Part shown: one piece after another, positions 201 to 63,432 of the stretch
How the letters are laid out: each line of letters opens with the position of its first letter
Numbering within the stretch: the stretch's first letter is position 1
Assembly: GCA_963834965.1 (NCBI GenBank)
Contig: CAWIEI010000002.1
Location: 27,359 to 91,358 of the forward strand
Length of the DNA stretch: 64,000 bases
Direction: 5' to 3'
Origin: an uncultured Actinomycetota bacterium
Lineage (GTDB): Bacteria; Actinomycetota; Actinomycetes; Actinomycetales; Dermatophilaceae
Translations under genes and position numbers: made by a program
Notes under the pieces: generated by a model
What the model was told of the DNA's origin: nothing
The model's input: the letters and a program-made list of their open reading frames with translations, nothing else
The model's database searches: none

Positions 201-274
201 GCACGGCAGCGTAGCGAGGCAGCCGGATGCCGGGCGACGCGTGGGTGCCCGACCCCGCCGGCCGCTGCACCCCG

Positions 275-343
275 ACTTCGTGCGACGTGGGTGCGGGTAT
301 TGCGGCGTGCAGAGCCAGAAACCGCACCCACGTCGCACGAAGT
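275..343. repeat. Palindromic element family I, copy 1
   Basis: Perfect 22-bp arms ACTTCGTGCGACGTGGGTGCGG / CCGCACCCACGTCGCACGAAGT; 69 nt long. Confidence 0.9.
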
Positions 344-443
344 GCGCGAGCTATCGGGGCGCGGTCGGGAGGTCCGAGCGGGAGGAGGCGTCCGGCATCC
401 GCGCCTGACGGAGGCAACTCGTCGAAACTTTGTCGAGGGAAGT

Positions 444-470
444 GCATCCAGCGAAGAGCCGGCGGCGGAA
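444..470 (+). promoter_or_regulatory. Possible SigK-type ECF promoter
   Basis: GCATCC-N16-CGGAA upstream of an MPT83/MPT70-like gene, resembling the SigK consensus CCATCC...CCGAA. Confidence 0.4.
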
Positions 471-516
471 GAAGGGGTGTCAGACCACCTCCGTACTTTC
501 GAAAGGACCTCCCGCC

Positions 517-1095
517 ATGCGACGCATCCTCCCCGTGGCCGCCGTCATCGCCCTCGCCATCACCACCGCCGCCTGTGGCAGCAGCGACGCCGACACCGCC
601 GCCAGCAGCGCGGCCCCGGCCACCACCTCCGCCGCACCCTCGCCCTCGCCGAGCGAGTCGATGGCCACCGCCGACATCGTCGACACCGCCGTCGCGGCCG
701 GCAACTTCACGACGCTGGCTGCCGCGCTCACCGCGGCCGGCCTGGTCGACACCCTCAAGGGCGCCGGGCCGTTCACCGTCTTCGCCCCGACGGACGACGC
801 CTTCGCCAAGCTGCCCGCGGGCACCGTCGACACCCTGCTGAAGGACCCCAAGGGCGACCTCACCCAGATCCTGACCTACCACGTCGTGCCCGGAAAGGTG
901 ATGGCCGCCGACGTGGCCAAGCTCGACGGCCAGAAGGTCAAGACCCTGCAAGGCGGTGAGCTCACCGTCGGCGTCAACGGCGACAAGGTCACCCTCACCG
1001 ACGCCGCCGGCAACACCGTGAACGTCACCACGGTCGACGTCCCGGCGAGCAACGGCGTCATCCACGTCATCGACGGGGTGCTGATGCCCAAGTGA
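517..1095 (+). CDS. Fasciclin (FAS1) domain lipoprotein, MPT83/MPB70-like
   Basis: Lipobox TAAC; motifs [29 protein letters not shown]; RBS GAAAGGA. Confidence 0.93.
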
Positions 1096-1156
1096 CCTGA
1101 GCACCCGAGCGGGGGTACGCCCCCCGCACCGCACCCATTGCTCGTCACGACGCCCG

Positions 1157-1225
1157 ACTTCGTGCGACTTGCACTCGGTTTCGCAGCCTCCGGGCCGTGA
1201 GAACCGTAGGCAAGTCGCACGAAGT
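1157..1225. repeat. Palindromic element family I, copy 2
   Basis: Arms ACTTCGTGCGACTTGC / GCAAGTCGCACGAAGT; same 69-nt length and same cccg/gcg flanks as copy 1. Confidence 0.9.
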
Positions 1226-1239
1226 GCGTCGTGGGCCCG

Positions 1240-2289
1240 TCAGGGGGCGACGGCGAGGGCGGCGTCGCCACGGGGGGACAGGCTGACCGGGTCGCCCGCC
1301 GCGAACCCCGTGACCTCGGTGTTGGGCACCTGCACGGTGACCAGGGTGCCGTCCGGGGTGCGCACGATGACCCGGCCGTGGCCGCCGAGGAAGCTGGCGC
1401 TGACCACGGATGCCGTGCCGTCGGCCGAGTGCTCGACGTGCACCCCCTCGGGCCGCACCAGCACCAGCGCCTCGGGCCCGGTCGCCGAGCCCGGCAGCAG
1501 CGGCACGCTGCCGCCCAGGAGAAAGGCCGTGGTGCCGTCGACGCGGGCCCGCACGCGGTTGGTCAGGCCCACGAAGTCGGCCACGAAGGGAGTCTGCGGG
1601 GCGCTGTAGAGCTCGGCCGGCGGCGCCAGCTGCTCGAGCCGGCCCACCGACATCACCCCGACCCGGTCGGCGACGGCGAGCGCCTCCTCCTGGTCGTGGG
1701 TGACGAACAACGTGGTGGTGCCGACCTCGAGCTGGATGCGGCGGATCTCGTCGCGCAGCTGGGTTCGCACCTTGGCGTCGAGCGCCGACAGGGGCTCGTC
1801 GAGCAACAGCACCTGCGGCTCGATGGCCAGTGCCCGCGCCAGGGCGACCCGTTGTTGCTGGCCGCCCGAGAGCTGGTGCGCGTACTTGTCGGCGTGCTCG
1901 TCGAGCCCGACGAGGTCGAGCATCTCGGCGGTGCGAGCCCGCCGGGTCGCCTTGTCGCGCCCACGCAGCTCGAGGCCGAACTCGACGTTCTGCCTGGCCG
2001 TCATGTGCGGGAAGAGGCTGTACGCCTGGAACACCATCCCCATGTCGCGCTTGTTCGCCGGCACCGAGGTCAGGTCGCGGCCGCCGACCTCGACGGTGCC
2101 CGAGTCGGGGTCCTCGAGCCCGGCCAGGCAGCGCAGCGCGGTGGTCTTGCCGCAGCCCGACGGGCCGAGCAGGGCGACGAACTCGCCGGGCTCGATGTGC
2201 AGGGTGAGCCCGTCGAGGGCCGCCACCCCGCCGTAGACGCGGTGCAGGTCGGTGAGGCGCACGGCGGTGCCGCGGCTGGTCTCGGTCAT
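1240..2289 (-). CDS. ABC transporter ATP-binding protein (PotA/FbpC-like, TOBE domain)
   Basis: GPSGCGKT, LSGGQQQRV, LLLDEP. Confidence 0.93.
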   Translation of the reverse strand: MTETSRGTAVRLTDLHRVYGGVAALDGLTLHIEPGEFVALLGPSGCGKTTALRCLAGLEDPDSGTVEVGGRDLTSVPANKRDMGMVFQAYSLFPHMTARQNVEFGLELRGRDKATRRARTAEMLDLVGLDEHADKYAHQLSGGQQQRVALARALAIEPQVLLLDEPLSALDAKVRTQLRDEIRRIQLEVGTTTLFVTHDQEEALAVADRVGVMSVGRLEQLAPPAELYSAPQTPFVADFVGLTNRVRARVDGTTAFLLGGSVPLLPGSATGPEALVLVRPEGVHVEHSADGTASVVSASFLGGHGRVIVRTPDGTLVTVQVPNTEVTGFAAGDPVSLSPRGDAALAVAP

Positions 2290-3149
2290 GCGGCGGCATC
2301 CTTGCGGTCGGCGCGAAAACGTCGGAGTCGGGCGACGGGGGAGCTGCCGGCGGTGCTGCTGCCCACGAACGACATCGCGAACAGCACCCCGAAGGCGAAG
2401 GCCAGGGCGAGCAGGCCCACCGCCACCGAGATCTTCGCGTCGGACTTGCCGAGCTCGTACATCGCCACCTGGAGGTTCTTCTTGCTGAACAGGCTCGCGA
2501 TGGTGAACTCGCCGAGCACCAGGGCCACGGACAGGAACGACGCCGAGAGCACCGACGAGCGCAGGTTGGGCAGCACGATGCGGCGCATCACGGTGAACCA
2601 CGACGCGCCCAGGGACCGGGCGGCCTCGGACAGGGTGCGCACGTCGATGGCGCGCAGCCCGGCATCGAGTGAGCGGTACGCGTACGGCAGCACGAGCACG
2701 ACGTAGACGAAGGACAGCAGCAGGGTCGAGGACCCGAAGAAGTAGTAGACCCACGCGTAGACCGGTGCCAGACCCACGACGAGCACGATCGCCGGCACGG
2801 TGAGCGGCAGCAGGCAGATGAACTCGACGGTGCGCGACAGGCCGGGCAGCCGCAGGCGCACCCACGTCATCGTCGGCACGAGGATGACGAGCATGACCAG
2901 CGGGGTGACGATCGCCAGGCCCACCGAGGCCAGGAACCCCTCGCGCAGCGCGGGGTAGTCGGTCGTGATCTTCCCGACGTCGACGAGGGTGGCCCAGGTG
3001 TCGGCGGTGTGGCCGTTGCCGCCGGGGCCCTGGGTGGTGAACTCGAGCGCGCCGAGCAGTGGCAGCAGGAAGAAGGTCACCGCGAGCGTGATCGCGCCCC
3101 AGCGGAAGGCGGTCTGCCGGCGCAGGTAGGCGGCGCGCTGCCCGCTCAT
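2286..3149 (-). CDS. ABC transporter permease
   Basis: Hydrophobic; EAARSLGA loop; 4-nt overlaps with both neighbours. Confidence 0.9.
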   Translation of the reverse strand: MSGQRAAYLRRQTAFRWGAITLAVTFFLLPLLGALEFTTQGPGGNGHTADTWATLVDVGKITTDYPALREGFLASVGLAIVTPLVMLVILVPTMTWVRLRLPGLSRTVEFICLLPLTVPAIVLVVGLAPVYAWVYYFFGSSTLLLSFVYVVLVLPYAYRSLDAGLRAIDVRTLSEAARSLGASWFTVMRRIVLPNLRSSVLSASFLSVALVLGEFTIASLFSKKNLQVAMYELGKSDAKISVAVGLLALAFAFGVLFAMSFVGSSTAGSSPVARLRRFRADRKDAAA

Positions 3150-4030
3150 CGCTGCATCCAGCGGCTGGCACGGCGGTCGAGGAACACGTAGGCCGTCATC
3201 ACCAGGGCGACGACGACGATCATCGCCAGGGCCATCGCCTTGCCGACGTTCTCCTGCCCCAGGATGACCTCCGAGCTCAGCGTTCCGGCGATCTGCAGTG
3301 GCAGCAGCGGGGTGCCCTGCGAGATGAGCGCCTTCGCGGTGGCGTAGGCGGAGAAGGCGTTGGTGAACAGCAGCAGCATCGCGCCGACGAACGACGGCAG
3401 CAGGATGGGGCCCGCGACCCGGCGCCAGAACGTCCAGGTCGTGCCCCCCAAGGTCTGGGTGGCCTCGCGCCACTGGGGGCGCAGCCCCTCGACCGCTGGC
3501 AGGAAGACGATGACCATGAGCGGGATCTGGAAGTAGAGGTAGACCAGCATCAGGCCCTTGTTCCAGCCGTAGAGCCAGAACCCGGTGCCGGTGTCGACGC
3601 CGACTCCGTTGAGCCAGGCGGTGATCAGGCCGGTCATGCCGAACGACGCCACGAACGCGAACGCCAGTGCCACACCGCCGAACTGGGCCAGCACGCCGCA
3701 CAGCGACGTGACGAACCGCTTGGTGACGCTGCTCGCCTTCGCCGTGCTCACGGCATACGCGAGGATGCCGCCGATCACGGCGCCGAAGAACGCGGTCACC
3801 GCCGAGAGCACCACGGAGTTGCGCAGCGCCCGGAGCACGGCGGGCGAGGTGAGCCCGTCGACGTTGGCCAGGGTGAAGCCGTTGTCGGTGCCGAGGAACG
3901 CGCCGACCAGCACCACGAGGGTCGGGATCAGCAGGAAGACCGTGGTGTACGCGAAGAAGGGGACGACGCCCAGGAGGGCACTCGACGGGCGACGCCGGCC
4001 GAGTGCCCTCCGTGCTGGGGCGTCAGCCAA
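3146..4030 (-). CDS. ABC transporter permease (start uncertain)
   Basis: TM segments and EATQTLGG loop; TTG start overlapping the binding-protein stop is assumed. Confidence 0.85.
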   Translation of the reverse strand: MADAPARRALGRRRPSSALLGVVPFFAYTTVFLLIPTLVVLVGAFLGTDNGFTLANVDGLTSPAVLRALRNSVVLSAVTAFFGAVIGGILAYAVSTAKASSVTKRFVTSLCGVLAQFGGVALAFAFVASFGMTGLITAWLNGVGVDTGTGFWLYGWNKGLMLVYLYFQIPLMVIVFLPAVEGLRPQWREATQTLGGTTWTFWRRVAGPILLPSFVGAMLLLFTNAFSAYATAKALISQGTPLLPLQIAGTLSSEVILGQENVGKAMALAMIVVVALVMTAYVFLDRRASRWMQR

Positions 4031-5171: not shown

Positions 5172-5431
5172 CGTGGACCTCCGAGTTCGGGGCGGCGAGT
5201 GCCGGGGCCTCGCAACGGGGGCCCTTTCGCACTCTAGGGAAACAGGTGAAGGTATGGAACCGCACCAATGTGTGTTCTGCGAGACGCAACTCAAACGTGA
5301 CCGCCGCTCCGGCAACCGTCCATCGCCGCACACCGTGCCGTTCACCCGGTGGTCGCTCCGGTCGACGCAGGGCGCCGGGCCACGCCGGAGCCGGCGTGGC
5401 CCGCCGGCCCGGCAGTGGTTGGATGGGCGTC

Positions 5432-6835
5432 GTGAGCGCGCGGTCGAGCAGAGTCGTCATCCTCGGTGGGGGGCCTGGTGGCTACGAGGCCGCCCTGGTG
5501 GCGGCGCACCTGGGCGCCGAGGTCACCGTCGTCGAGCGCGACGGGCTCGGCGGCGCCGCGGTGCTCACCGACTGCGTGCCCAGCAAGACGCTGATCTCGA
5601 CCGCCGACTACCTGAGCGACTTCGAGACCGCCCACGAGCTGGGCGTGCACCTCGAGGACGCCGAGGGCGACGAGGTCGCGGATGCCGTGGCCGACCTGCG
5701 CGAGGTCAACACCCGGGTGCTCGACCTCGCCGCCGCCCAGAGCGACGACATCGCGACCCGGCTCGCCGAGGTCGGCGTGCGGGTGCTCGCCGGGCGCGCG
5801 GTGCTCACCTCGCCCACCACGGTGCGCGCCGAGACCGCCGGCGGCGTGCTCGAGCTCGAGGCCGAGGTCGTTCTGGTCTCCACCGGCGCCACCCCGCGCG
5901 TCATGGACACGGCCCGCCCCGACGGCGAGCGCATCCTCACCTGGCAGCAGATCTACGACCTCGACACGCTGCCCGAGCGGCTCGTCGTCGTCGGCTCCGG
6001 CGTCACCGGCGCCGAGCTCGCCCAGGCCTACCTCGGCCTCGGTTCCGAGGTCGTGCTCGTCTCCTCGCGCGACCGGGTGCTGCCTGGCGAGGACCCCGAC
6101 GCCGCCCAGGTCATCGAGGACGTCTTCACCAAGCGCGGCATGGAGGTGCTCGGTCGCTCCCGGATGGCGGCCGTCGAGCGCACCGCCGACGGAGTCGTCG
6201 TGCGCCTCGAGGACGGCCGCGAGGTGCTCGGCTCCCACGCGCTGCTCGCCGTGGGGTCGGTGCCCCAGACGAGCGGCATCGGGCTCGAGGACGTCGGCGT
6301 CGAGGTCACGGCATCCGGGCACGTGGCGGTCGACCGCGTGTCGCGCACCTCGGTGCGCGGCGTCTACGCCGCCGGCGACTGCACCGGTGTGCTGCCGCTC
6401 GCGTCGGTCGCGGCGATGCAGGGCCGCATCGCGATGTCACACGCGTTGGGGGATGCCGTGGCGCCGCTGAACCTGCGCGTCGTGTCGGCCAACATCTTCA
6501 CCGACCCCGAGATCGCCACGGTCGGGGTGACCCAGAAGGACGTCGACGACGAGGTCGTCGACGCCGAGGTGCTCATGCTGCCGCTGTCGCGCAACCCGCG
6601 GGCGAAGATGCTCGGCATCGAGGACGGCTTCGTGAAGCTGTTCGCGCAGAAGGGTTCTGGCGCGGTCGTGGGTGGTGTGGTCGTCGCACCGCGCGCCTCC
6701 GAGCTGATCTTCCCGGTCACCCTGGCCGTGCAGCACCGGCTCAACGTCGACCAGGTTGCCTCGACCTTCACGGTCTACCCGTCGCTGTCCGGCTCGATCG
6801 CCGAGGCGGCGCGTCGCCTGCACGCAACGGACTGA
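5432..6835 (+). CDS. lpdA: NAD(P)H:quinone dehydrogenase (flavoprotein disulfide reductase family, Rv3303c-like)
   Basis: GGGPGG FAD motif; AVLTDCVPSK with a single Cys; YPSLSGS C-terminus; synteny with punA and bccA. Confidence 0.9.
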   Translation: MSARSSRVVILGGGPGGYEAALVAAHLGAEVTVVERDGLGGAAVLTDCVPSKTLISTADYLSDFETAHELGVHLEDAEGDEVADAVADLREVNTRVLDLAAAQSDDIATRLAEVGVRVLAGRAVLTSPTTVRAETAGGVLELEAEVVLVSTGATPRVMDTARPDGERILTWQQIYDLDTLPERLVVVGSGVTGAELAQAYLGLGSEVVLVSSRDRVLPGEDPDAAQVIEDVFTKRGMEVLGRSRMAAVERTADGVVVRLEDGREVLGSHALLAVGSVPQTSGIGLEDVGVEVTASGHVAVDRVSRTSVRGVYAAGDCTGVLPLASVAAMQGRIAMSHALGDAVAPLNLRVVSANIFTDPEIATVGVTQKDVDDEVVDAEVLMLPLSRNPRAKMLGIEDGFVKLFAQKGSGAVVGGVVVAPRASELIFPVTLAVQHRLNVDQVASTFTVYPSLSGSIAEAARRLHATD

Positions 6836-11728: not shown

Positions 11729-12660
11729 AATCACCCGGCGCCGCCACCATCGCCCTGACCGCCGTCCCGCCGGTGGTGTGGGGCTCCACGTATGCCGTCA
11801 CGCAGCTCTGGCTGCCACCGGACCGTCCGTTCTTCGCCGCTGCCGCCCGGGTGCTGCCCGCGGGGATGCTCCTGCTGCTCTGGGTGCGGCGCCTCCCGCG
11901 CGGCCGGTGGTGGGGGCGGTCGGTCGTGCTGGGCGGCCTGAACCACGGGCTGTTCTTCGGCCTGCTCTACCTCGCCGCCTTCCGCCTGCCCAGCGGGCTG
12001 GCCTCCACGCTCACCGCCCTGTCGCCACTGGTGGTCATGGGCGCCGCCTTCCTCGTCATCGGCGAGCGGCAGTCGCGGGTCACCCTGCTCGCGGCCCTGG
12101 TCGGGGTCGCGGGTGTCGTGACGCTGGTCTGGCAGAACGACCGGGCCGGCACCGTGGATGCCGTCGGCGTCGCCGCCGCGCTCGGGGCCGTCGCGTCGTC
12201 CGCGCTCGGCTTCGTCCTGGTCAAGCGCTGGTCGCCTCCGCACGACGTGCTGGTGACCACGTCGTGGCAGCTGGTCGCGGGTGGGCTGCTGCTGCTGCCG
12301 GTGGCCGCCGTGGTGGAGGGGGCGCCGCCGGCCCTCGACGGGTCGGCGCTCGCCGCGCTCCTCTACCTCGGGCTGGTCGGCTCGGCCCTGGGTTACCTGC
12401 TGTGGTTCCGCGGGCTCACCCGGATGGATGCCGGTGCCGTCGCCGTCGTGGGCCTGGTCAACCCCGTGGTCGGCACCGCGCTGGGGGTGCTGCTGCTGGC
12501 CGAGCCGTTCGGGCCCGTCCACCTGGCGGCGGTGGCGGTCACCCTCGGCGCCGTGCTGGTGGCGCAGGCGCCCGTGCGCCGGCGGCTGTCCGGCATCGGG
12601 GCTGTCGCTCGCCACCGTCGGTCGGCCGCACGCCCTACCGTTGGCTCATGCCCCACGTGA
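11719..12660 (+). CDS. pecM: EamA/DMT family transporter, PecM-like
   Basis: PVVWGSTYAVTQLWLPPDRP motif; about 10 TM helices. Confidence 0.85.
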   Translation: MEEKSPGAATIALTAVPPVVWGSTYAVTQLWLPPDRPFFAAAARVLPAGMLLLLWVRRLPRGRWWGRSVVLGGLNHGLFFGLLYLAAFRLPSGLASTLTALSPLVVMGAAFLVIGERQSRVTLLAALVGVAGVVTLVWQNDRAGTVDAVGVAAALGAVASSALGFVLVKRWSPPHDVLVTTSWQLVAGGLLLLPVAAVVEGAPPALDGSALAALLYLGLVGSALGYLLWFRGLTRMDAGAVAVVGLVNPVVGTALGVLLLAEPFGPVHLAAVAVTLGAVLVAQAPVRRRLSGIGAVARHRRSAARPTVGSCPT

Positions 12661-13484
12661 CCACCACCGCCCTGTCGTCCCCCTCCGGCCCGGTGCCGAT
12701 CCCGACCGTCGGCTTCGGCGTCTGGCAGGTGCCCGACGACGAGGTCGACGCGGCCGTGGTCGCGGCGCTGGATGCCGGCTACCGGCACGTCGACACGGCG
12801 CGGCTCTACGGCAACGAGGCCGGCGTGGGCCGGGCGCTGGCCGCGAGCGACGTGCCCCGCGACGACGTCTTCGTGACGACGAAGGTCTGGAACGACGACC
12901 ACGGGCGCGACGCCACCCTCACGGCATTCGACGCCTCGATGGGCCGGCTCGGGCTCGACCTGCTCGACCTGTTCCTGATCCACTGGCCGGCCCCCCGGCA
13001 GAACCGGTACGTCGAGACCTGGCAGGCGCTGCGCGAGCTGCGCGACGACGGGCGGGTGCGCGCCATCGGGGTCTGCAACTTCCACGCCCCGCACCTTCAG
13101 CGGCTGTTCGACGAGACGGGGGAGTGGCCGAGCATCAACCAGGTCGAGCTGCACCCCTACCTCCAGCAGGCGCCGCTGCGCGAGTTCCACGCCGAGCACG
13201 GCATCGTCACCGAGTCGTGGAGCCCGCTGGCCTCCGGCAAGAAGGTGCTCGACGACCCGGTCGTCGGTGCCATCGCGCAGCGGCACGGCGCGACCCCGGC
13301 GCAGGTCGTCATCGCGTGGCACCTGGCGCTCGGCCTGGTCGTGCTGCCCAAGTCGGTCACGCCGTCGCGGATCGTCGAGAACCTCGCCGCCGCCGACCTC
13401 ACCCTCACCGCCGACGACCTCGACGAGATCGCCGGCCTCGACCGCGGCTTCCGCACCGGCCCGAACCCCGACGAGTTCAGCTGA
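12648..13484 (+). CDS. Aldo/keto reductase (2,5-DKG reductase-like)
   Basis: GYRHVDTARLYGNE, FLIHWP, NQVELHP, LPKS. Confidence 0.93.
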   Translation: MPHVTTTALSSPSGPVPIPTVGFGVWQVPDDEVDAAVVAALDAGYRHVDTARLYGNEAGVGRALAASDVPRDDVFVTTKVWNDDHGRDATLTAFDASMGRLGLDLLDLFLIHWPAPRQNRYVETWQALRELRDDGRVRAIGVCNFHAPHLQRLFDETGEWPSINQVELHPYLQQAPLREFHAEHGIVTESWSPLASGKKVLDDPVVGAIAQRHGATPAQVVIAWHLALGLVVLPKSVTPSRIVENLAAADLTLTADDLDEIAGLDRGFRTGPNPDEFS

Positions 13485-33643: not shown

Positions 33644-34831
33644 ATGTACGAGCTGAGCAAGGACCACGAGGACTTCCGCAAGGTGGTCCGCGAGTTCGCC
33701 ACCGAGGCCGTCGAGCCGCACGTCGCCCAGTGGGACCGCGACCACCACTTCCCGGCCGACCTGGTGCCGCAGCTGGGTGACCTCGGCCTGTTCGGCCTGG
33801 TGGTGCCCGACGAGTTCGGTGGCTCGCTCGAGGACTCCGACGGTGGCGCCTTCACCAACCTCTGCATCGCGATCGAGGAGCTGGGCCGGGTCGACCAGTC
33901 GATCGGCATCACCCTGTCGGCCGGGGTCGGGCTGGGCATCAACCCGATCCTCACCTACGGCAGCCAGGAGCAGAAGGAGCGCTTCCTGCCCGACCTCGTG
34001 TCGGGCCGCGCGCTCGCCGGGTTCGGCCTCACCGAGCCGGATGCCGGCAGCGACGCGGGTGCCACCCGCACCAAGGCGGTGCTCGACAACGGTGAATGGG
34101 TCGTCGACGGCGCCAAGGCATTCATCACGAACTCCGGCACGCCCATCACCTCGGTCGTCACGGTCACGGCGCGCACGGGCACCGACGAGAAGGGGCGCCC
34201 GGAGATCTCGGCGATCATGATCCCCTCCGGCACAGCCGGTTTCACCGTCGAGGCCCCCTACGACAAGCTCGGCTGGAACATCTCCGACACCCACGGCCTG
34301 TCCTTCAGCGGATGCCGCGTGCCCGAGGACCACCTGCTCGGCCAGCGCGGTCAGGGCTTCCGCCAGTTCCTCAAGACCCTCGACGACGGCCGCATCGCGA
34401 TCAGCGCGCTGGCGCTGGGGCTGATCACCCGGATGCGCGAGGAGGCCACGGCCTACGCCAAGAGCCGCACGGCGTTCGGCAGACCGATCGGGGTCAACCA
34501 GGGGGTCGCGTTCCCGATCGCCGACCTCGCCGTCATGGAGGAGACCTCGCGCCTGCTCACCTACCGGGCCGCCTGGCTCAAGGACGAGCACGAGAGCGGC
34601 CGCCGCTCGGTGGCCGAGGTCAAGCAGGCCGCGGCGGTGGCGAAGCTCTACACCTCCGAGGCTGCGGTGTCCGCCACCCGGATCGCCACCCAGGTCTTCG
34701 GCGGCAACGGCTTCATGGAGGAGTACCCCGTGGCCCGCTTCTACCGCGACGCCAAGATCCTCGAGATCGGCGAGGGCACCTCCGAGGTGCAGCGCATGGT
34801 CATCGCCAAGGGCCTCGGCCTCCCGGCATGA
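33644..34831 (+). CDS. Acyl-CoA dehydrogenase
   Basis: GLTEPDAGSD, GAKAFITN, QVFGGNG, IGEGTSEVQ. Confidence 0.95.
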   Translation: MYELSKDHEDFRKVVREFATEAVEPHVAQWDRDHHFPADLVPQLGDLGLFGLVVPDEFGGSLEDSDGGAFTNLCIAIEELGRVDQSIGITLSAGVGLGINPILTYGSQEQKERFLPDLVSGRALAGFGLTEPDAGSDAGATRTKAVLDNGEWVVDGAKAFITNSGTPITSVVTVTARTGTDEKGRPEISAIMIPSGTAGFTVEAPYDKLGWNISDTHGLSFSGCRVPEDHLLGQRGQGFRQFLKTLDDGRIAISALALGLITRMREEATAYAKSRTAFGRPIGVNQGVAFPIADLAVMEETSRLLTYRAAWLKDEHESGRRSVAEVKQAAAVAKLYTSEAAVSATRIATQVFGGNGFMEEYPVARFYRDAKILEIGEGTSEVQRMVIAKGLGLPA

Positions 34832-37339: not shown

Positions 37340-37371
37340 GCCGTCATGCATGGGCTTGGGACAAGATCGAC

Positions 37372-39868: not shown

Positions 39869-42800
39869 GTGCGCGTCACGATCGACGGGAACCAGGCGGC
39901 GGTCGACGTCGCCTACCGGCTCAACGAGCTGTGCGCCATCTACCCGATCACCCCGAGCTCGACGATGGCCGAGCTCGCCGACGAGTGGGCCAGCCACGGG
40001 CGAACGAACGTGTGGGGGAGCGTGCCCACCGTCGTCGAGATGCAGAGCGAGGGCGGCGCGGCCGGCGCCATGCACGGCGCCCTGCAGGGCGGGGCGCTGA
40101 GTGCCACGTTCACGGCATCCCAGGGCCTGCTGCTGATGATCCCCAACATGTACAAGATCGCCGGAGAGCTGACGTCCACGGTGTTCCACGTGGCCGCCCG
40201 CTCGCTGGCGGCGCAGGGGCTGTCGATCTTCGGTGACCACTCCGACGTGATGGCGGTGCGGCAGACCGGTTTTGCGCTGCTCTCATCGGCATCGGTGCAG
40301 GAGGCGCACGACCTTGCGCTCGTTGCGCAGGCGGCGACGCTGCGCACCCGGGTGCCGTTCGTGCACTTCTTCGACGGCTTCCGCACCTCCCACGAGCTCA
40401 ACACCGTCGAGCTCATCGACGACGACGTGCTGCGCGCCGTCGTGCCGGAGCACCTGGTGCGCGAGCACCGCTTCCGGGGGCTGACCCCGGAGCGGCCGTT
40501 CGTGCGCGGCACCGCCCAGAACCCCGACGTCTACTTCCAGGCGCGCGAGACCGTGAACCCCTTCTACGCCGTGGTGCCCACGGTGGTGCAGGAGGTCATG
40601 GACGAGGTCGCCGCGCACACCGGGCGGCACTACCGCATCGCCGAGTACACCGGTCACCCCGAGGCCGACCGCGTCGTCGTCATCATGGGGTCCGGCGGGG
40701 AGACGGTGCGCGAGACCGTGACCCACCTCGTCGGTGGGGGAGATCGGGTCGGGGTGCTCCAGCTGCGCCTGTACCGGCCCTTCCCCGCGGCCGAGCTGCT
40801 CGCCGCACTGCCGGCATCCGTGACCCAGGTGGCCGTGCTCGACCGCACCAAGGAGCCCGGCTCCAACGGTGAGCCGCTCTACCTCGACGTCGTCGCCACC
40901 CTCGCCGAGGCCCACGAGCGCGGTGACCGGGCCACCATCCCGCGCGTCATCGGCGGCCGCTACGGCCTGTCGTCCAAGGAGCTCACCCCGGCGATGGTCG
41001 CCGGCATCTACACCGAGCTCGCGCGCCCAGAACCCAAGCGCCGCTTCACGATCGGCATCACCGACGACGTCGGCGGCACCAGCCTGACGTACGACGACAG
41101 CCTCGACATCGAGGAGCCGGACACGCTGCGAGCCGTGTTCTACGGGCTGGGCTCCGACGGCACGGTCGGTGCGAACAAGAACACCATCAAGATCCTCGGC
41201 GCCGACCCCGACGTCTACGCCCAGGCCTACTTCGTCTACGACTCCAAGAAGTCGGGCGGGCTCACGGTGTCGCACCTGCGCTTCGGTCCGCACCCGATCC
41301 ATGCGCCCTACCTGGTCAACCGCGCCGGGTTCGTCGGGTGCCACCACCTCGGCCTCCTCGAGACCGTCGACGTGCTGGCCTGCGCCGAGGACGGCGCCAC
41401 CCTGCTGCTCAACGCGCCCCAACCGCCCGACGAGGTGTGGGACGCGCTGCCCGGCCCGGTGCAGCAGCAGGTGATCGACAAGCGTCTGCGCCTCTATGCC
41501 GTCGACGCCGCCTCCGTGGCGCGCGAGGCCGGCCTGCCCGGTCGCACCAACACCGTGCTGCAGACGTGCTTCTTCGCGATCTCGGGCGTGCTGCCCGCCG
41601 ACGAGGCCGTGCTGCGGGTCAAGGAGGCCATCCGCAAGACCTACAGCCGGCGCGGGTCGGAAGTGGTGCGCCGCAACGAGGCCGCCGTCGACGCCACGCT
41701 CGCTGCACTGAACGAGGTGCCGGTGCCGGTCGCCCGCACATCAGCACGCGAGATGCCCGACATCGTGCCCAGCGACGCCCCCGAGTTCGTGCGCACCGTG
41801 ACCGCCGCGATGATGGCCGGGCGCGGCGACGACCTCCCGGTCAGCGCGATGCCGGTCGACGGCACGTTCCCCAGCGGCACCACCGCCTACGAGAAGCGGC
41901 GGATCTCGGACGTGGTCGCCGCCTGGGACCCTGACGCCTGCATCCAGTGCGGCACCTGCAGCTTCGTGTGCCCGCACAGCGTCATCCGGTCGAAGTTCTA
42001 CGCCGGCGATGCGCTCGACGACGCCCCCGAGGGTTTCCGGTCGGCGCCGCTCAACGCCGCCGGCCTGCCCGGCTCGCGCTACACCCTGCAGGTCTACGTC
42101 GAGGACTGCACCGGCTGCGGCCTGTGCGTCGAGGCGTGCCCGGTCAGCCCGATCGGGGAGCCCACCCGCAAGGCGATCAACCTCGAGCCGCTCGAACCGG
42201 TGCTCGTGCCGGAGCGCGAGAACATCGGCTACTTCGAGGGGCTCCCGGTCAACGACCGTTCCCGCGTCGACTTCGGCACGGTGCGTGGAACCCAGTTCCT
42301 GCAGCCGCTGTTCGAGTTCTCGGGGGCGTGCGCCGGGTGCGGTGAGACCCCCTACCTCAAGGTGCTCACCCAGCTCTTCGGCGAGCGGCTCACGGTGGCC
42401 AACGCGACGGGGTGCTCGTCGATCTACGGCGGCAACCTCCCCACGACACCGTGGACCAAGAACGCCGCGGGGCGCGGGCCGGCCTGGTCGAACTCCCTCT
42501 TCGAGGACAACGCCGAGTTCGGCCTGGGCCTGCGCCTCGCCGCCGACCTGCACACCTCCCTGGCCCGCACCCGCCTCGCCCAGCTGCGCGAGGAGGTCGG
42601 CACCGAGCTGACGGACGGCATCCTCGAGGCAGGGCAGGTGCGCGAGTTCGAGCTCACCGCCCAGCGCGAGCGGGTCGCCGAGCTGCTCACCCGCCTCGAC
42701 GGCCTCGAGGGCCCGGTGGTGGAGGACCTGCGCAGCGTCGCGGACCACCTGCTGCGGCGCACCGTGTGGATCGTGGGCGGTGACGGCTGGGCCTACGACA

Positions 42801-43438: not shown

Positions 43439-44460
43439 CCGACCTGACGACGAGCTATCTCGGTCTGGCACTGCGCAACCCGCTCGTGGCGAGCGCCTCG
43501 CCGCTCTCGCAGGGGGTCGACCGGGTGCGAGCGCTGGCCGGGTCTGGGGTGGGGGCCGTGGTGCTCTACTCGCTGTTCGAGGAGCAGGTGCACCGCGAGC
43601 AGCTGCGCGACCTGATGATCACCGAGTCGCACGAGGACGCCTTCGGCGAGGCGCAGACCTGGTTCCCGACGGTGCCCACCACCCAGCCGGTCGGGTCGGC
43701 CCACTACCTGCACCTGCTCGAGCAGGCGTCGGCCGCGGTCGACGTGCCGGTGATCGGCAGCCTGAACGGCAGCAGCCCCGGCGGCTGGGCCAGCTTCGCG
43801 CGGTCGATGCAGGATGCCGGCGCCGCGGCCATCGAGCTCAACATCTACCTGGTGCCCGGCAACCCGCACACCAGCGGGCGCGAGGTCGAGGACCGGCACG
43901 TCGAGATCCTGCGCCAGGTCAAGGATGCCGTGACCGTGCCGGTCGCCGTGAAGCTGAGCCCGCACTTCAGCTCGATGGGCGAGATGGCGCTGCGGCTCGA
44001 CGTCGCCGGCGCCGACGGGCTGGTGCTCTTCAACCGCTTCCTGCAGCCCGACGTCGACCCGGAGACGATGACCGTCACCACCGGGGTGGGCCTGTCCTCC
44101 CCGGCCGAGGCGCGCCTGCCGCGCACCTGGATCGCGATCCTGCGCGGCCACGTCACGGCATCCCTGGCTGCCACGACCGGCGTCGAGGATGCCGGCGACG
44201 TCGCGGCCTACCTGCTCGCCGGTGCCGACGTGGTGATGACCGCGTCGGCCCTGCTGCGGCACGGGCTGGGTCATGCCGGGGTGCTGCTCACCGGGCTGGA
44301 GGGCTGGATGGCGCGGCACGGGTTCGCGGGGGTCGACGAGTTCCGCGGACGCCTCGCGGTGCCGGTCGGCGTCGACCAGACGGCGTACGAGAGGGCCGGT
44401 TACGTCGCGGCACTGGAGCAGGCCCGGCACACCTACGGCGACCTGGTCGTCGGCGGCTGA
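43435..44460 (+). CDS. Dihydroorotate dehydrogenase-like FMN protein
   Basis: YLGLALRNP, VAVKLSP, LFNRF; GTGA overlap with nifJ. Confidence 0.88.
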   Translation: MTDLTTSYLGLALRNPLVASASPLSQGVDRVRALAGSGVGAVVLYSLFEEQVHREQLRDLMITESHEDAFGEAQTWFPTVPTTQPVGSAHYLHLLEQASAAVDVPVIGSLNGSSPGGWASFARSMQDAGAAAIELNIYLVPGNPHTSGREVEDRHVEILRQVKDAVTVPVAVKLSPHFSSMGEMALRLDVAGADGLVLFNRFLQPDVDPETMTVTTGVGLSSPAEARLPRTWIAILRGHVTASLAATTGVEDAGDVAAYLLAGADVVMTASALLRHGLGHAGVLLTGLEGWMARHGFAGVDEFRGRLAVPVGVDQTAYERAGYVAALEQARHTYGDLVVGG

Positions 44461-44475
44461 GCCGGGCGGCATCCG

Positions 44476-54536: not shown

Positions 54537-55676
54537 ATGTCCGCCGAGCAGGTCGGTCGGTCCGCCGGCGACGCCGCCGCCGGCGAGGCTCCCGCGCTGC
54601 TCGATGTCTCCGGGCCCGACCTCGTGACGCCCGACGACGTGGCCGAGCGGGTCGAACGCATGCTGCTCGGCCGGCCCGCCTCGATGGGGCGGCGCGAGGT
54701 GACCGAGGGTGCCGGCGTCGAGGCCCTCACGGCCCGGCGGTTCTGGCACGCGATGGGCTTCCAGAACGTCACCGACGACGAGGCGATGTTCACCGAGGCA
54801 GACACCCAGGCGCTGCGCCGGGTGGCCCGGATCATCGACGACGGCCGGCTCAGCGAGGAGCTGGCCCTCGGCATGACCCGCGCGTTCGCCCGCACCGCCG
54901 ACCGGCTCGCCGTCTGGCAGACCCAGCTCGTCGCCGAGTCGCTGGCCGCCCCGCTCGCCGAGGAGCTCGAGGGGCGCGACAGCCGGTCGGTGCCCGAGCC
55001 GCTGGTCGCCGCCGAGGCCGCCGAGCTGCTCGCGGGCATCTCCACCGAGATCGAGCCGCTGCTGGTCTACGTCTGGCGCCGCCACCTGACCAACGCGATC
55101 GCCCGAATGCTCGCTGATGCCGACCCGGCCGTGCACTCCGACCCCTCCGCCCCGATCCGCGTCGTGGGCTTCGCCGACCTGGTGTCGTTCACCTCGTTCG
55201 TGCGGCGGATGAGCGAGCGGCAGCTCGCGCGCCTCGTGCAGCGCTTCGAGCTGCTCGCCAGCGACGTGATCACCGAGCACGGCGGCCGGGTGATCAAGAC
55301 CGTGGGCGACGAGGTGCTGTTCGTGCACTCGGAGGCGGCCGCGGCATCCGCCATCGCCCTGGACCTGGTCGACGCGATGGCCGAGGACGAGCTGTTGCCG
55401 CCGGTGCGGGTCGGCCTGGCCCACGGGCGGGTCGTCTCGCGCCTCGGCGACGTCTTCGGGATGACGGTGAACAAGGCCAGCCGGATCACCGCGGTGACCC
55501 CGTCGGGGCACGTCTACGTCGACGACGACATGGCCCGGGTGCTGGGCGAGGTGTCCGGCTTCACGGCCATCGAGCGTCGCCGGCGGGTGCTGCGCGGCAT
55601 CGGCGTGGTGGCCCTGCACGAGCTGCAACGCGCACCCGGTGGGCGCCGCCCTCCGGCGGATGGGGGGACGTCGTGA
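54537..55676 (+). CDS. Class III adenylate cyclase with N-terminal regulatory domain
   Basis: GFADLVSFT, IKTVGDE, GDVFGMTVNKASRI. Confidence 0.9.
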   Translation: MSAEQVGRSAGDAAAGEAPALLDVSGPDLVTPDDVAERVERMLLGRPASMGRREVTEGAGVEALTARRFWHAMGFQNVTDDEAMFTEADTQALRRVARIIDDGRLSEELALGMTRAFARTADRLAVWQTQLVAESLAAPLAEELEGRDSRSVPEPLVAAEAAELLAGISTEIEPLLVYVWRRHLTNAIARMLADADPAVHSDPSAPIRVVGFADLVSFTSFVRRMSERQLARLVQRFELLASDVITEHGGRVIKTVGDEVLFVHSEAAAASAIALDLVDAMAEDELLPPVRVGLAHGRVVSRLGDVFGMTVNKASRITAVTPSGHVYVDDDMARVLGEVSGFTAIERRRRVLRGIGVVALHELQRAPGGRRPPADGGTS

Positions 55677-55690
55677 CTACGATCGAACAC

Positions 55691-56365: not shown

Positions 56366-56372
56366 GGGCGGG

Positions 56373-57404: not shown

Positions 57405-57421
57405 CCCGCGTCGGCGGCGGC

Positions 57422-58534: not shown

Positions 58535-58572
58535 GACGCGACGCTAGGGCACGGCGCCGACAGGGCAGGCCC

Positions 58573-59049
58573 TCAGAGCGGCTCGCCGGCGAAGACGAAC
58601 TTGCGGTAGGCCCAGAACCGGAACAGCGTGCCGAGGCCGATGCCGATGATCGTCGCGATGTTGTCGGCCAGGATCGTGGTGAAGCCCAGGGCATAGTGCG
58701 AGATGGTCAGGGTGATGGCCGAGATGACCAGGGCGATGCCGTTCACGCCGAAGAACAGGATGACCTCGTGGCTGGCAGGCCGGCTGCGGCGGTGGCGGAA
58801 GGTCCACTGCCGGTTGCCGACCCACGAGAAGAGGGTCGCGACGGCGCCGGAGATGATCTTGGCGGTGGTGACCTTGTCGGAGAGCACCGTGTGCCACAGC
58901 AGGTTCGCCAAGCCGATGTCGATGATGAAGGCGAGGATGCCGACGACCCCGAACTTGATCATCTCGCGGTAGATGACGTCGACGGCTCCGCGCGCCCGGT
59001 CGAGGCTGCGGGAGGGCCCGCCGGTGGGGGGCGGAGCGGTCGTGGGCAC
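58573..59049 (-). CDS. GtrA-family flippase-like protein
   Basis: KFGVVG, NRQWTF, RFWAYRKFVF; four TM helices. Confidence 0.88.
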   Translation of the reverse strand: MPTTAPPPTGGPSRSLDRARGAVDVIYREMIKFGVVGILAFIIDIGLANLLWHTVLSDKVTTAKIISGAVATLFSWVGNRQWTFRHRRSRPASHEVILFFGVNGIALVISAITLTISHYALGFTTILADNIATIIGIGLGTLFRFWAYRKFVFAGEPL

Positions 59050-59088
59050 CGAAGCAGCCTACCGACCTGCGGTCGCTATCCTCGCCGG

Positions 59089-60273
59089 GTGACCACCCCA
59101 CGGCGCGCACCCGGAGGTTTTCCCGTCGTCGGCATCATCGGTGGGGGCCAGCTGGCACGAATGTGCGCCGGCCCCGCTGCCGAGCTGGGGGTGACCCTGA
59201 GCGTGTTCGCCGAGGCCGACGACGCCAGCGCCGCCCTCGTCGTGCCGAGCTCTCCGGTCGGCGACCACACCGAGGCCGATGCCGTGCACGCCTTCGCACA
59301 GCACTGCGACGTCGTCACCTTCGACCACGAGCACGTGCCCGCGCACGTGCTCGACCTGCTTGTGGCCGAGGGCGTCGAGCTGCACCCCCGGCCGCAGGCG
59401 CTGCGGTTCGCCCAGGACAAGCTCGCCATGCGCGAACGGCTCACCGAGCTGGGGGTGCCCTGCCCGCGGTGGGCGCGCGCCGACAGCGCCGCGGACGTGA
59501 CGGCGTTCGGGGATGCCGTGGGCTGGCCGGTCGTGGCCAAGACCCCGCGCGGGGGCTACAACGGCATGGGGGTCATGGTCGTGCGGGATGCCGGTGAGCT
59601 CACCGGCTGGCTGGAGCGCGCGGCATCCGAGGGCACGGGCCTGCTGCTCGAGGAGCGGGTGCCGTTCGTTCGCGAGCTCGCGGTGCTCCTGGCCCGGAGC
59701 CCGTCCGGGCAGGCTGCCGCGTGGCCGGTGGTGGAGACGGTGCAGACCGACGGCATCTGCACCGAGGTGCTCGCGCCGGCGCCCGGGCTGGATGCCGGGC
59801 TGGCCGCGGCCGTGGTGCACGCCGGGCTGACGGTGGCGGGGGCGCTCGACGTCACCGGGGTGCTGGCCGTGGAGCTGTTCGAGGTGCTGGGGGAGGACCG
59901 GGCGCCCTCCTTCGTGGTGAACGAGCTGGCGATGCGCCCGCACAACTCCGGGCACTGGTCGATGGACGGCGCCGTCACCGGGCAGTTCGAGCAGCACCTG
60001 CGGGCCGTGCTCGACCTGCCGCTGGGGTCGCCGCGACCGCACGGGCCGTGGACCGTGATGGCCAACGTGCTGGGCGGCGACTACGCCGAGCTGTACCCGG
60101 CATACCGTCACGTCATGGCGCGCGACCCGGAGGCCAAGGTGCACATGTACGGCAAGGGCGTGCGGCCCGGCCGCAAGATCGGGCACGTCAACATCTGCGG
60201 CGACGACCTCGCCGACCTGCGTGAGCGGGCCCGGCACGCGGCCGACTACATCCAGGGAGCAGTGATCGAGTGA
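59089..60273 (+). CDS. purK: N5-carboxyaminoimidazole ribonucleotide synthase
   Basis: [32 protein letters not shown]. Confidence 0.95.
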
Positions 60274-60809
60274 GCACGCACGCGGACGGGAGCACCCCGC
60301 TGGTCGGTGTCGTCATGGGGTCCGACTCCGACTGGCCGGTCATGGAGGGAGCGGTCGTCGCGCTCGAGGAGCTCGGGGTGGCGTGCGAGGTCGACGTCGT
60401 CTCGGCGCACAGGATGCCGGAGGAGATGGTCGAGTACGGTCGCTCGGCCGAGTCGCGCGGGCTGCGCGTGATCATCGCCGGTGCCGGGGGCGCTGCCCAC
60501 CTGCCGGGGATGCTCGCGTCGGTCACCTCGCTGCCGGTCATCGGGGTGCCGGTGCCGCTGAAGTATCTCGACGGGATGGACTCGCTGCTGTCGATCGTGC
60601 AGATGCCGTCGGGCGTGCCGGTGGCGACCGTGTCGGTGGGTGGGGCGCTCAACGCCGGCCTGCTCGCCGCCCGCATCCTCGGCGCAGGGGAGGGGGCGGA
60701 GGCGGAGCGGCTGCGGGGGGCGCTGGCGCAGTTCCGCGAGAACCTGCGCGACCAGGCACAGGCCAAGGGAGCGGCGCTGCGGGAGCGTCGGGCGACCGAC
60801 CGCGGGTAG
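60270..60809 (+). CDS. purE: N5-CAIR mutase
   Basis: [27 protein letters not shown]. Confidence 0.96.
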
Positions 60810-60898
60810 TCCCGGCGTCGGCTTCGATCTGGTCGAGGGCTCACCGCGTCGAGGGTAGTTTCTGCTGAGGGCGAACTGGGCCTGTGGATGCTTGATAC

Positions 60899-60921
60899 TC
60901 GAACAGGCGTTCGGTTATGAT
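60899..60921 (+). promoter_or_regulatory. LexA (SOS) box adjacent to a -10 element
   Basis: TCGAAC-AGGC-GTTCGG matches the actinobacterial CGAAC-N4-GTTCG consensus; TATGAT at 60916-60921. Confidence 0.8.
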
Positions 60922-60926
60922 TGGGC

Positions 60927-62528
60927 ATGGCATCTCGGGGGTTGGGTCTGGCGGAGCGTCGCTCCGTGATGCTGCTGCTGCTGACGCGCTGGTCGGGTTC
61001 GGTGGGGCGGTGCACGAGGCGTCGGATGAGCAGCTGGCTGAGCTGATGGGTGAGGCGGATGCGCTTGGCGGCTCAGGCTGCGTGCGGCGCGTGCAGAGGT
61101 GGCGGTGGAGGCGGTCCGGCGGGGTGTGGTGGCCGGGTCGGGGATGAACGCGCAGGCGTGGGTGCGGGAGTGTGCGCCGTCGTTGCGGCAGGGCGGTGCT
61201 GGGCAGGTCGCGAAGCTCGCGGTCGAGGTCGCGGGGTGTCCCGGGCGGCGGGGTCGTTGGCGCCGGATGCCGCGGCGGAGCCGGACCCTGCGTCGCCGTT
61301 GGGGTTGGTGTGGGCGGGGGTGGTCGCGGCGGAGGTGTCGCCGAGTTTGGCGTTGTCGGCTCTGGGTGAGGTGGCCCGGTTGGAGCCGCGTCTGGAGCCG
61401 GAGGCGGTGCCGACGGTGACCCGGGCGTTGCTGGGGTTGGGCACGGTGTGGGGTGCGGGTCTGATGCGGAAGCTGCGTCCGGCGATGATCGCGAAGTATG
61501 GGCATCAGGGGGAGCTGGACGACGTGCAGGAGCGGTTGGCTCCGGTGGCGCGGTTGTCGCAGCCGTGGGTGGCGTCGGGGGATGTGACGGAGTATCAGCT
61601 GGTGGTGACTCCGGAGCAGGCGGCGGTGTTGGAGGCGGCGATCGGGCCGCTCAGTGCGCCTGCTCCGAACGATGAGACCGGGCAGCGGGACCTGCGCCCG
61701 GCGGGGCAGCGGCGGGTGGAGGCGTTGGCCGAGGTCTGCCGCAGGTCGTCGGGGTTGGACGCCGACGGGGCCGGTGGTGACGGGCCGGCGGGGTCGGCGG
61801 CGGCGTTGCACGTGACGATCAGCCTGGCCGACTTGCAGGAGATGACGGGGGCGGGGGAGGTGCTCGGGTCGACCGCGACGGGGGTGTTGTTGTCGCCGCA
61901 GGTGCTGCGGCGGGTGGCGTGTGACGCGGCGTTGGTCCCGCACGTGCTGGGCACGGCGGGGGAGGACCTGGACCTGGGGCGGGTGGTGCGCCTGTTCACC
62001 CGGGCCCAGCGTCGCCGGTTGTGGCGCCGGGACCGGACCTGCACCTTCCCGGGGTGTTCGGCGCCGGCGAGCTGGGCGAAGGCGCATCACGTGCTGCACT
62101 GGGCCGATGGTGGCCGGTCCGATGTCGACAACGCGGCGTTGTTGTGTCAGCGCCACCACACGTTCGTGCACCAGCGACGGCTGTGGGCCGACGTGCGCAC
62201 GACCCCTGACGAGCTGGGCCGGTCCGTCATCTGGGACCTGCACCCCGGCTCGTATGACCGGCAGCTGGAATGGCTGGCCCGGCAACGCGCCGAGCACGAC
62301 CCGCCACCGCTGACCCGGCAGCGGCTGCTGCAGCTGGTGGCTGCGGTCACCCACCGTGACGAGGCCGACCGGCGCCTGGCCCAGCACGACCTCGACCAGC
62401 TCAGCGACGCCTGGCACGACTGGGACCACCACGCCCAGACCGCCATCGACCCCGACGACCCCGACTACCGCGCCTGGCACGAGACCCACCTGACCGCCGT
62501 CGCAGCCGCGACCCACCATGCCGCGTGA
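60927..62528 (+). pseudogene. DUF222-HNH endonuclease (13E12-like) gene with several 5' frameshifts
   Basis: RDRTCTFPGC, AHHVLHWADGG, NAALLCQRHH; the N-terminus is spread over different frames (ORFs at 60917, 61099, 61050). Confidence 0.82.
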
Positions 62529-62574
62529 GGCGTGCACCCGACGTGCCGGCGGATGCGATGACTCTGCGGACCCT

Positions 62575-62644
62575 GTCGTCTGTGCCCCTTCCCCTGGCAG
62601 CCCTTCAACGTCGTCTGTGCCCCTTCCCCTGGCAGCCCTTCAAC
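62575..62644 (+). repeat. Perfect 35-bp tandem duplication
   Basis: GTCGTCTGTGCCCCTTCCCCTGGCAGCCCTTCAAC occurs twice. Confidence 0.95.
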
Positions 62645-62706
62645 CGCGGCCGTTCGCCCGCGAAACCAGGTTGACCGGCCAGCCCAGCCCTGCGCCCAAT
62701 GGGACG

Positions 62707-63381
62707 GTGAACCAGCCCCGCTGCGTCGTGCTCGTCGAGGGCCACAGCGACCGGGTGGCACTGCGCACGCTGGCGCAGTGCCTGGGGCGCGATCTCGACG
62801 CGGAGGGAGTCGAGGTGGTGGCCATGGGTGGCATCACCAACACCCGGGCCTTCGCGAAGAGGTACGGACCGCTGGGGCTGGGCCTGCCCCTCGCGGGGCT
62901 CTACGACATCGGGGAGCGGGCCGTGCTCCGGCGCGGGCTTCGCGCGGCGGGTCTGGCGGACCCGCTCGAGCCGTACGCGTTCGAGCCGGACGTAGTCGAG
63001 CCGGAGGCAATCGGGCCGGAGGCAATCGAGCCGCCCGCATTCGAGCGGCTCGGCTTCTACGCGTGCGACCGCGACCTCGAGGACGAGCTGCTGCGCGCGC
63101 TGGGTACCGACGCGGCCGAGGCGGTCATCGCCGAGGCCGGGGAGGCGCAGTCCCTGCGGCTGCTCGCAGGCATGCCAGCACAGCGCGGCTGGACCCGGCT
63201 CGCGGTGCTCCGCCGGTTCCTCGGCTCACAGTCGGGGCGCAAGGCGCGGTATGCCGACCTGTTCGTCCGAGCTCTCGACCCAGACCGGGTGCCCGAGCCG
63301 CTGACCGCGCTGCTCGCCCACGTCCGGCGCGAACCGACCGCCCAGAGTGACGGCGACGTGCCAGGCATCCCACGGCGCTGA
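62707..63381 (+). CDS. Stand-alone OLD-type TOPRIM domain protein
   Basis: VVLVEGHSD, VAMGG, GLYDIGE, DLEDEL. Confidence 0.78.
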   Translation: MNQPRCVVLVEGHSDRVALRTLAQCLGRDLDAEGVEVVAMGGITNTRAFAKRYGPLGLGLPLAGLYDIGERAVLRRGLRAAGLADPLEPYAFEPDVVEPEAIGPEAIEPPAFERLGFYACDRDLEDELLRALGTDAAEAVIAEAGEAQSLRLLAGMPAQRGWTRLAVLRRFLGSQSGRKARYADLFVRALDPDRVPEPLTALLAHVRREPTAQSDGDVPGIPRR

Positions 63382-63432
63382 ACGGCGCTCGGCATCCTGC
63401 GTGGGTGAGGGGCCCACGGCATCCGAGTGTGG

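Follow-up and report, generated by a model that had tools for sequence, protein, structure and literature searches.

To our knowledge, the Neisseriaceae, the Pasteurellaceae and the cyanobacteria are the only three bacterial groups with hyperabundant 'self' words, and in each of them such words have given insight into how sex is kept among kin. Here, we follow up a reading, made from sequence alone, of a 64-kb stretch of DNA (hereafter 'the window'; contig CAWIEI010000002.1, positions 27,359 to 91,358, GenBank assembly GCA_963834965.1) from an uncultured member of the Dermatophilaceae; the element in question is a short asymmetric word, GGATGCCG, which together with a second accepted word, GTATGCCG (the two being written jointly as GKATGCCG), recurs throughout the window and the genome from which it comes.

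The DNA uptake sequence (DUS) of the Neisseriaceae is like this word in having thousands of copies at ~1/kb, in being non-palindromic and present on both strands, in its conservation within species, and in forming one- to few-base dialects by genus within one family, with none in neighbouring families (PMC3630211). It differs in being 10-12 nt long, in lying largely in intergenic inverted pairs and in having the minor type IV pilin ComP as its reader, whereas the Dermatophilaceae word has 8 nt, sits mostly as single copies in genes and belongs to a Gram-positive family nearly without PilM-type pili; the same-orientation spacing reported below is, moreover, no described trait of DUS. The uptake signal sequence (USS) of the Pasteurellaceae likewise forms single dispersed copies, mostly coding, in all frames and equally on both strands, imposed on protein-coding sequence (PMC1939737), but it combines a 9-nt core with AT-rich flanks, whereas the flanks beyond GGATGCCG carry at most 0.16 bit. 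The cyanobacterial highly iterated palindrome, HIP1 (GCGATCGC), is also an octamer, 15-300-fold over-represented, rich in non-preferred codons, conserved beyond codon effects and subject to lineage variants (PMC5861425, PMC4390886, PMC13756078), and has recently been tied to transformation (10.1101/2024.09.10.611283, PMC13756078); it is, however, palindromic, and two conserved orphan methylases have sites that overlap it, whereas GGATGCCG lacks such symmetry and the families searched yielded no conserved methylase. Chi, as read by RecBCD or AddAB, is an asymmetric word of 5-8 nt that marks self DNA and is read one way from a DNA end, and the oriented spacing seen here would fit such a reader; Chi is nevertheless co-oriented with replication, less over-represented and rarer, and RecC was not found in the genomes of this genus that were searched. 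Finally, FtsK-orienting polar sequences (KOPS) and architecture-imparting sequences are octamer-sized, genome-wide signals too, but they are strongly polar and switch at origin and terminus, a role that fits another word, CGGGGGAG, and not GKATGCCG.

The sequence-only reading had estimated about 80 copies of GGATGCC/GGCATCC in the window, against some 15 predicted by composition at a GC content of ~72%, and these estimates proved sound: we count 81 (45 forward, 36 reverse), 100 dinucleotide-preserving shuffles give 15.1 +/- 3.7 with a maximum of 25, and the measured GC content is 0.70-0.75. Across the assembly of which the window is part (4.28 Mb in 35 contigs, 86% complete), the heptamer occurs 4,971 times (2,478 forward, 2,493 reverse). 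Its hyperabundance is therefore upheld, but not its standing as the unit: G is the eighth base after 92% of copies genome-wide and 76 of the 81 in the window, and the real unit is the octamer GGATGCCG, non-palindromic as claimed in that it differs from its own reverse complement, with GTATGCCG as second word. GGATGCCG itself numbers 4,571 copies, or 1.07/kb (2,267 forward, 2,304 reverse), where 407 are expected from an order-1 and 611 from an order-3 Markov model (observed-to-expected ratios, O/E, of 11 and 7.5), and ranks highest of all 8-mers genome-wide apart from homopolymers; GTATGCCG is raised as well, at 405 copies. Against 560 kb from motif-free relatives of equal GC content, strong enrichment is confined to GGATGCCG (5.2x) and GTATGCCG (7.1x), the other one-base variants of the octamer standing at 0.4-3.2x and GGACGCCG being depleted to 0.4x; the summed GGNNGCCG words come to 1.12x, which is within between-genome noise and has little power as a test of a drive limited to positions 3 and 4. 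For GKATGCCG in the window, 88 copies compare with 7.5 +/- 2.7 expected.

The word occurs both within genes and outside them. Our own codon-likelihood caller gave 3,057 genes covering 77% of the DNA, with a third-position GC content (GC3) of 0.92; about three quarters of GGATGCCG copies lie inside them, at 1.02/kb versus 1.16/kb elsewhere, and all six frames are occupied, namely xxG-GAT-GCC-G (1,291 copies), xxC-GGC-ATC-C (1,033), xCG-GCA-TCC (573) and, more rarely, xGG-ATG-CCG (325), CGG-CAT-CC (113) and GGA-TGC-CG (66), with a further 1,122 in uncalled (non-coding) DNA. When codons were shuffled synonymously within each gene, such that protein, dipeptides and per-gene codon usage were kept, the 1,683 sense copies observed fell to 194.5 +/- 11 and the 1,720 antisense copies to 498 +/- 16; the respective O/E of 8.65 and 3.46 are well removed from 1. 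The proposal that the motif overrides codon bias also holds, in that GAT makes up 8.1% of Asp codons overall yet 81.8% of those in the context G-GAx-GCCG (versus 5.7% outside the _GCC context), GCA 6.0% of Ala codons yet 73.8% in CG-GCx-TCC, and CAT 7.9% of His codons yet 66.5% in CGG-CAx-CC. Synonymous choice leans to the motif base at 8 of 8 positions, with odds ratios of 2.4-51 and with transversions such as GCC to GCA included; this wobble test, conditional on a match at the remaining seven positions, is partly confounded except at positions 3 and 4 and is to be taken as supportive only.

Existing copies are also retained. In an alignment with a congener (G002) over 131 kb at 88% identity, GGATGCCG sites are kept at 0.73-0.77 versus 0.49-0.50 for all or composition-matched octamers, and in other comparisons, at 81-83% identity, at 0.48-0.50 versus 0.26-0.32 for controls. 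GTATGCCG sites are kept as GTATGCCG, without interconversion with GGATGCCG within the genus, and across dialects, alignment with genome G208 pairs only 2 of 55 GGATGCCG sites with a GTATGCCG; with orthologous sites unshared across dialects and none interconverting within the genus, we take it that sites have been turned over, rather than co-shifted. Motif-poor segments (no more than three copies per 10 kb; 29 of 412) have a GC content of 0.688 versus 0.724 and a GC3 of 0.864 versus 0.923, and therefore look like acquired islands.

Orientation required a control of its own. GC skew fails to assign replichores here, because the coding strand is rich in C at third codon positions (a genome-wide GC3 skew of -0.147), such that the local skew follows the transcribed strand, reports gene orientation instead of replication direction and masks the replication signal. 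In its place we used CGGGGGAG, whose polarity recommends it as a KOPS-like control: it is 90-100% polar per contig (24:2, 25:0, 1:36, 3:42), similarly so in single-replichore samples from relatives (46:1, 31:0), and strongly polar in six other genera, all of which makes it, as judged from sequence, a candidate for the FtsK-orienting word of the Dermatophilaceae. Checked against CGGGGGAG, GGATGCCG shows no replication polarity on any contig, its orientation being balanced on each and co-oriented with the control in 49% of cases; over 50-kb blocks its orientation heterogeneity is low (chi2/df 0.74, rank 2,180 of 2,211 words). A copy tends to be followed by one in the opposite orientation (55.1% of cases; z 6.9), and same-orientation pairs are depleted at all distances to ~1.5 kb (fraction same 0.39-0.46), with the fraction reaching 0.50 past 2 kb; the overall same-orientation fraction, 0.453, is the lowest of 44 abundant 8-mers including GGATGCCG itself (median 0.524). 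Taken without regard to orientation, spacing is near-exponential, with no USS-like evenness, and inverted pairs are few. Such dependence of spacing on orientation suggests that the reader enters DNA at an end and travels along it, as a motor for uptake or a resection enzyme of the AdnAB type would.

A search with pccB placed the genome nearest to Ornithinibacter metagenome-assembled genomes (Dermatophilaceae/Intrasporangiaceae; 96-97% identity), and GGATGCCG is one dialect in a word family that extends across the Dermatophilaceae, not a peculiarity of this genome. It is enriched in all 18 congeners searched, at 0.5-1.3/kb and ~7-20x a reversed-word control; in a survey of 200 genomes from 67 genera it attains the congener level in only four genera, and GTATGCCG has 600-5,400 copies in roughly half of the 67 and a background of 10-80 in the rest, some congeners having both words. 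Counted in 142 genomes from 20 other families of the same order, GTATGCCG stays at background. Samples of 60-200 kb from other genera contained further non-polar words, GTACGCCG (G138, G062), GTATGCG (G054), GATGCGG (G038), GAAGGGGG in four genera (Janibacter by name) and the palindrome GACGCGTC (G069), and several genera were without any such hyperabundant word in samples of this size. Knoellia and Phycicoccus elongatus loci carry GTATGCCG, and neither word was found in 3.6 kb each from Phycicoccus jejuensis, P. sonneratiae, P. avicenniae and Oryzobacter (L007, L009, L023, L024), whose pccB is 90-94% identical to that of this genome. No publication was found on the word, or on competence in Dermatophilaceae.

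Two side observations belong here. The words of other genera occur at 0.3-2/kb and comprise the 8-mers GAAGGGGG, which is G-rich (loci L165-L167, L185-L187 and L188-L193), and GACGCGTC, a HIP-like palindrome (L182-L184), together with the 7-mers GTATGCG (L162-L164) and GATGCGG (L151-L153). Should the absence at the four Phycicoccus and Oryzobacter loci hold genome-wide, close relatives would differ in having the word at all.

We then come to what might read the word. A methylation link finds no support, nor do the type IIS-like sites GGATG/GCATC noted earlier within the motif: five methylase Pfam families (PF00145, PF01555, PF02384, PF02086, PF07669) and Vsr have no match in this genome, the three main families occur in only 3, 2 and 3 of 26 genus genomes, and none of the three is present in four congeners (G002, G007, G010, G012) with 2,600-5,200 copies and a completeness of 95-100%. 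The Vsr-like DUF559 does not correlate with the trait, and is missing from the motif-rich genomes G065 and G110. RecC was found in 0 of 6 genomes (this one and five congeners), nor was it found in the motif-rich genera g27 and g31; it is patchy in the Dermatophilaceae and, on a rough genus count without phylogenetic correction, commoner, if anything, in genera without GKATGCCG. Given that RecC was not found and that methylases of the three main families are missing from most congeners, the genus (g1) seems methylation-poor and reliant on AdnAB only. This genome has ComEA, DprA, Flp/Tad loci and an AdnAB-like pair; DprA and the AdnAB-like pair are present in 5 of 5 genomes checked, and ComEC and Tad loci each in 199 of 201 family genomes. 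Across genera, the trait is correlated with none of PilM, RecC, DUF559, T2SSF/Tad and ComEC. The order also contains Micrococcus luteus, in which transformation runs through just such Flp/Tad plus ComEA/ComEC machinery (PMC6370729).

At the level of sequence, the word resembles HIP1 and uptake sequences, as the sequence-only reading had supposed, in its density, strand symmetry, occupation of frames and intergenic DNA alike, codon override, conservation, depletion in islands and clade-specific dialects. Uptake sequences (PMC3630211, PMC1939737) and HIP1 are what is known to produce patterns of this sort. The explanation that we tentatively prefer, at slightly less than an even chance, is that GGATGCCG with GTATGCCG forms a self-DNA signal read one way in DNA exchange or recombination, in the manner of an uptake sequence or of Chi; that preferential uptake or recombination is the cause, and that reading is directional, we infer. 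The reader would be a DNA-handling machine that acts on linear DNA in one direction, for which the candidates are the Flp/Tad-ComEA-ComEC uptake route and an AdnAB-type end-resecting helicase-nuclease, uptake-type and Chi-type forms being roughly equal in probability within this explanation. DNA with the word would be more likely to be kept and recombined, and such biased transmission (molecular drive, possibly with weak selection) could write the word into every frame that the protein tolerates, override codon bias, preserve existing copies and leave recently acquired islands bare. At two-ended breaks, or on incoming fragments, a reader would need both orientations everywhere and gain little from a nearby copy in the same direction, and one-base shifts in its specificity might generate the dialects of other genera. 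We would go on to suggest, as a possibility that is on balance doubtful, that the Dermatophilaceae offer the first sequence-specific recognition of self DNA in Gram-positive Actinobacteria; a one-way word of 8 nt, serving either as an uptake signal (Flp/Tad-ComEA-ComEC) or as the missing Chi-equivalent of AdnAB, whose dialects, GTATGCCG, GGATGCCG, GTACGCCG and possibly GAAGGGGG and others, may bar gene flow between genera, including those of the main wastewater polyphosphate-accumulating bacteria.

A number of points weigh against this explanation. We know of no uptake specificity in Gram-positive bacteria, nor of any Chi for AdnAB; the Chi sites known to us are all co-oriented with replication, which GGATGCCG is not, and we are aware of no orientation-specific spacing described for DUS or USS. 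PilM-type pili have full-length matches in only 3 of 201 family genomes, and no paper was found that reports natural transformability of any member of the Dermatophilaceae. ComEC, ComEA, DprA, T2SSF/Tad and the AdnAB-like nuclease are also present in genera without the word, the uptake genes equally so, and none correlates with it. Direct weak selection on an array of binding sites, furthermore, would yield most of the same patterns.

In an array of that kind, an abundant chromosomal protein (nucleoid-associated, condensin-loading or similar) would bind GKATGCCG, and selection of about the strength of that on codons would keep ~1 site/kb per orientation, which would suit sites conserved above controls, same-orientation copies spaced apart and a sharp octamer specificity; the odds shifts inferred from the wobble odds ratios amount to a few units of Ne*s, reachable in large populations. 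We nonetheless consider it unlikely, as no candidate protein is known, as the architecture-imparting words described so far are polar (the polar one here being CGGGGGAG), as closely related genera lack the word, which is odd for a core architectural function, and as words known to reach O/E values of 10-100 are either uptake sequences or HIP1 (PMC5861425, PMC3630211). Less probable still is a ratchet of the HIP1 type, in which an orphan methyltransferase marks the word and methyl-directed or very-short-patch-like repair turns near-matches into matches, a mechanism that Elhai proposed for HIP1 (PMC4390886, as quoted in PMC5861425). HIP1 is the closest octamer precedent, the word does hold GGATG/GCATC, which are type IIS sites elsewhere, and the depletion of GGACGCCG would be in keeping; set against these are the missing methylase and Vsr matches in this genome, the near-complete motif-rich congeners without the three main methylase families, the behaviour of DUF559, and transversions that are driven like transitions. 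We rejected very-short-patch repair bias proper (Dcm/Vsr, which acts from T:G to C:G only), since no C5-methylase or Vsr was found in this genome and the drive is toward A/T, with transversions.

A classical polar signal, whether Chi for RecBCD or a KOPS/FtsK-orienting sequence, would suit an over-represented, non-palindromic word of 8 nt whose orientation matters for spacing, but it is scarcely credible here: RecC, found in none of the six genus genomes nor in g27 and g31, is present in many word-free genera, and the orientation of GGATGCCG is balanced and indifferent to CGGGGGAG. With no RecC found in the genus, and with no polarity, the RecBCD Chi and KOPS roles stand refuted. It is just as improbable that composition, at the level of codons, dipeptides or oligonucleotides, produced the word, or that a context-dependent mutation hotspot at a single site did (e.g. 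C to T in GGACGCCG). One frame, GGC-ATC-C, is indeed made of preferred codons, position 4 is that which most often differs at orthologous sites of other genera (0.65-0.78), and the GGNNGCCG total is hardly raised over motif-free relatives; yet synonymous shuffles leave 5-9x fewer copies, the commonest frames use the rarest codons, non-coding density equals coding, the drive acts at position 3 as well as at position 4 and starts from each of the other bases, and the count is 5x lower in relatives that share this GC content and codon usage. A dispersed repeat of the repetitive extragenic palindrome (REP) or miniature inverted-repeat transposable element (MITE) kind was likewise rejected, on the grounds of uninformative flanks, the share of copies in genes and the scarcity of inverted pairs.

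If the one-way self-DNA signal that we prefer is borne out, a fourth case of this kind would be valuable, coming as it does from a Gram-positive, high-GC family without known competence, with clear dialects and a spacing that points to a directional reader. An actinobacterial uptake or Chi-type signal would become directly testable in culturable strains such as Knoellia, Phycicoccus elongatus and Janibacter, and donor DNA given the right dialect might allow these wastewater and soil organisms, which are genetically intractable, to be transformed. The word serves, moreover, as a strong marker when Dermatophilaceae genomes are binned or searched for foreign DNA.

Within the window, the copies and the polar control are placed as follows.

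225..63424, both strands: 88 GKATGCCG (76 GGATGCCG, 12 GTATGCCG) plus 5 GGATGCC without the eighth G, scattered over the whole window
5680..5687, forward strand (likewise 34039-34046, 43923-43930 and 59790-59797): most frequent coding frame, xxG-GAT-GCC-G, which encodes Asp-Ala through the rare GAT
6309..6316, reverse strand (likewise 40812-40819, 55342-55349 and 59621-59628): antisense frame, xCG-GCA-TCC, Ala-Ser with the rare GCA
3751..3770, GTATGCCG (reverse) and GGATGCCG (forward): both accepted words adjoining, 4 bases apart and in opposite orientation
44467..44474, reverse strand: non-coding copy
63364..63424, reverse strand: three same-orientation GGATGCC copies at an exact 27-bp spacing, near the gap between convergent open reading frames (ORFs)
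2336, 7693, 8674, 13117, 19449, 32813, 53136, 61852 and 61957, forward strand, and 11460, reverse strand: CGGGGGAG, 9:1

From its 9:1 polarity in CGGGGGAG, the window lies on one replichore. By our own gene calls, 29 of the 81 window copies of the heptamer fall in xxG-GAT-GCC, 16 in xCG-GCA-TCC, 17 in GGC-ATC-C, 11 in non-coding DNA and 8 in other frames. The copies first singled out for the GAT frame (5680, 12770, 34039, 43923 and 59790, with 12770 lying within ORF 11778-13484) and for the GCA frame (6310, 40813, 55343 and 59622) are all in frame as described; of those thought to be intergenic, 394, 44468, 63391 and 63418 are non-coding, but 225 and 63364 sit inside weak ORF calls. In the cluster at 63364-63424, the first copy is without the eighth G and overlaps the end of ORF 62518-63381, and copies two and three sit between the convergent ORFs; the cluster was not called as a tandem repeat by Tandem Repeats Finder (TRF), and runs counter to the general avoidance of same-orientation neighbours.

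A dispersed, AT-richer element with the core ATCGACCAATAGGTCAC occurs in the window at 37370 (reverse), 50899 (forward) and 51739 (reverse), with 82 copies genome-wide, often in inverted pairs, one of which flanks a DUF559 gene at ~50.9-51.7 kb; this element is REP/MITE-like and unrelated to the octamer. Outside the window, at C5:14466-15320 of the same assembly (G000), poly-A tracts of 63, 15 and 131 bases stand in a genome of 72% GC, and are probably an assembly artefact or a contaminant.

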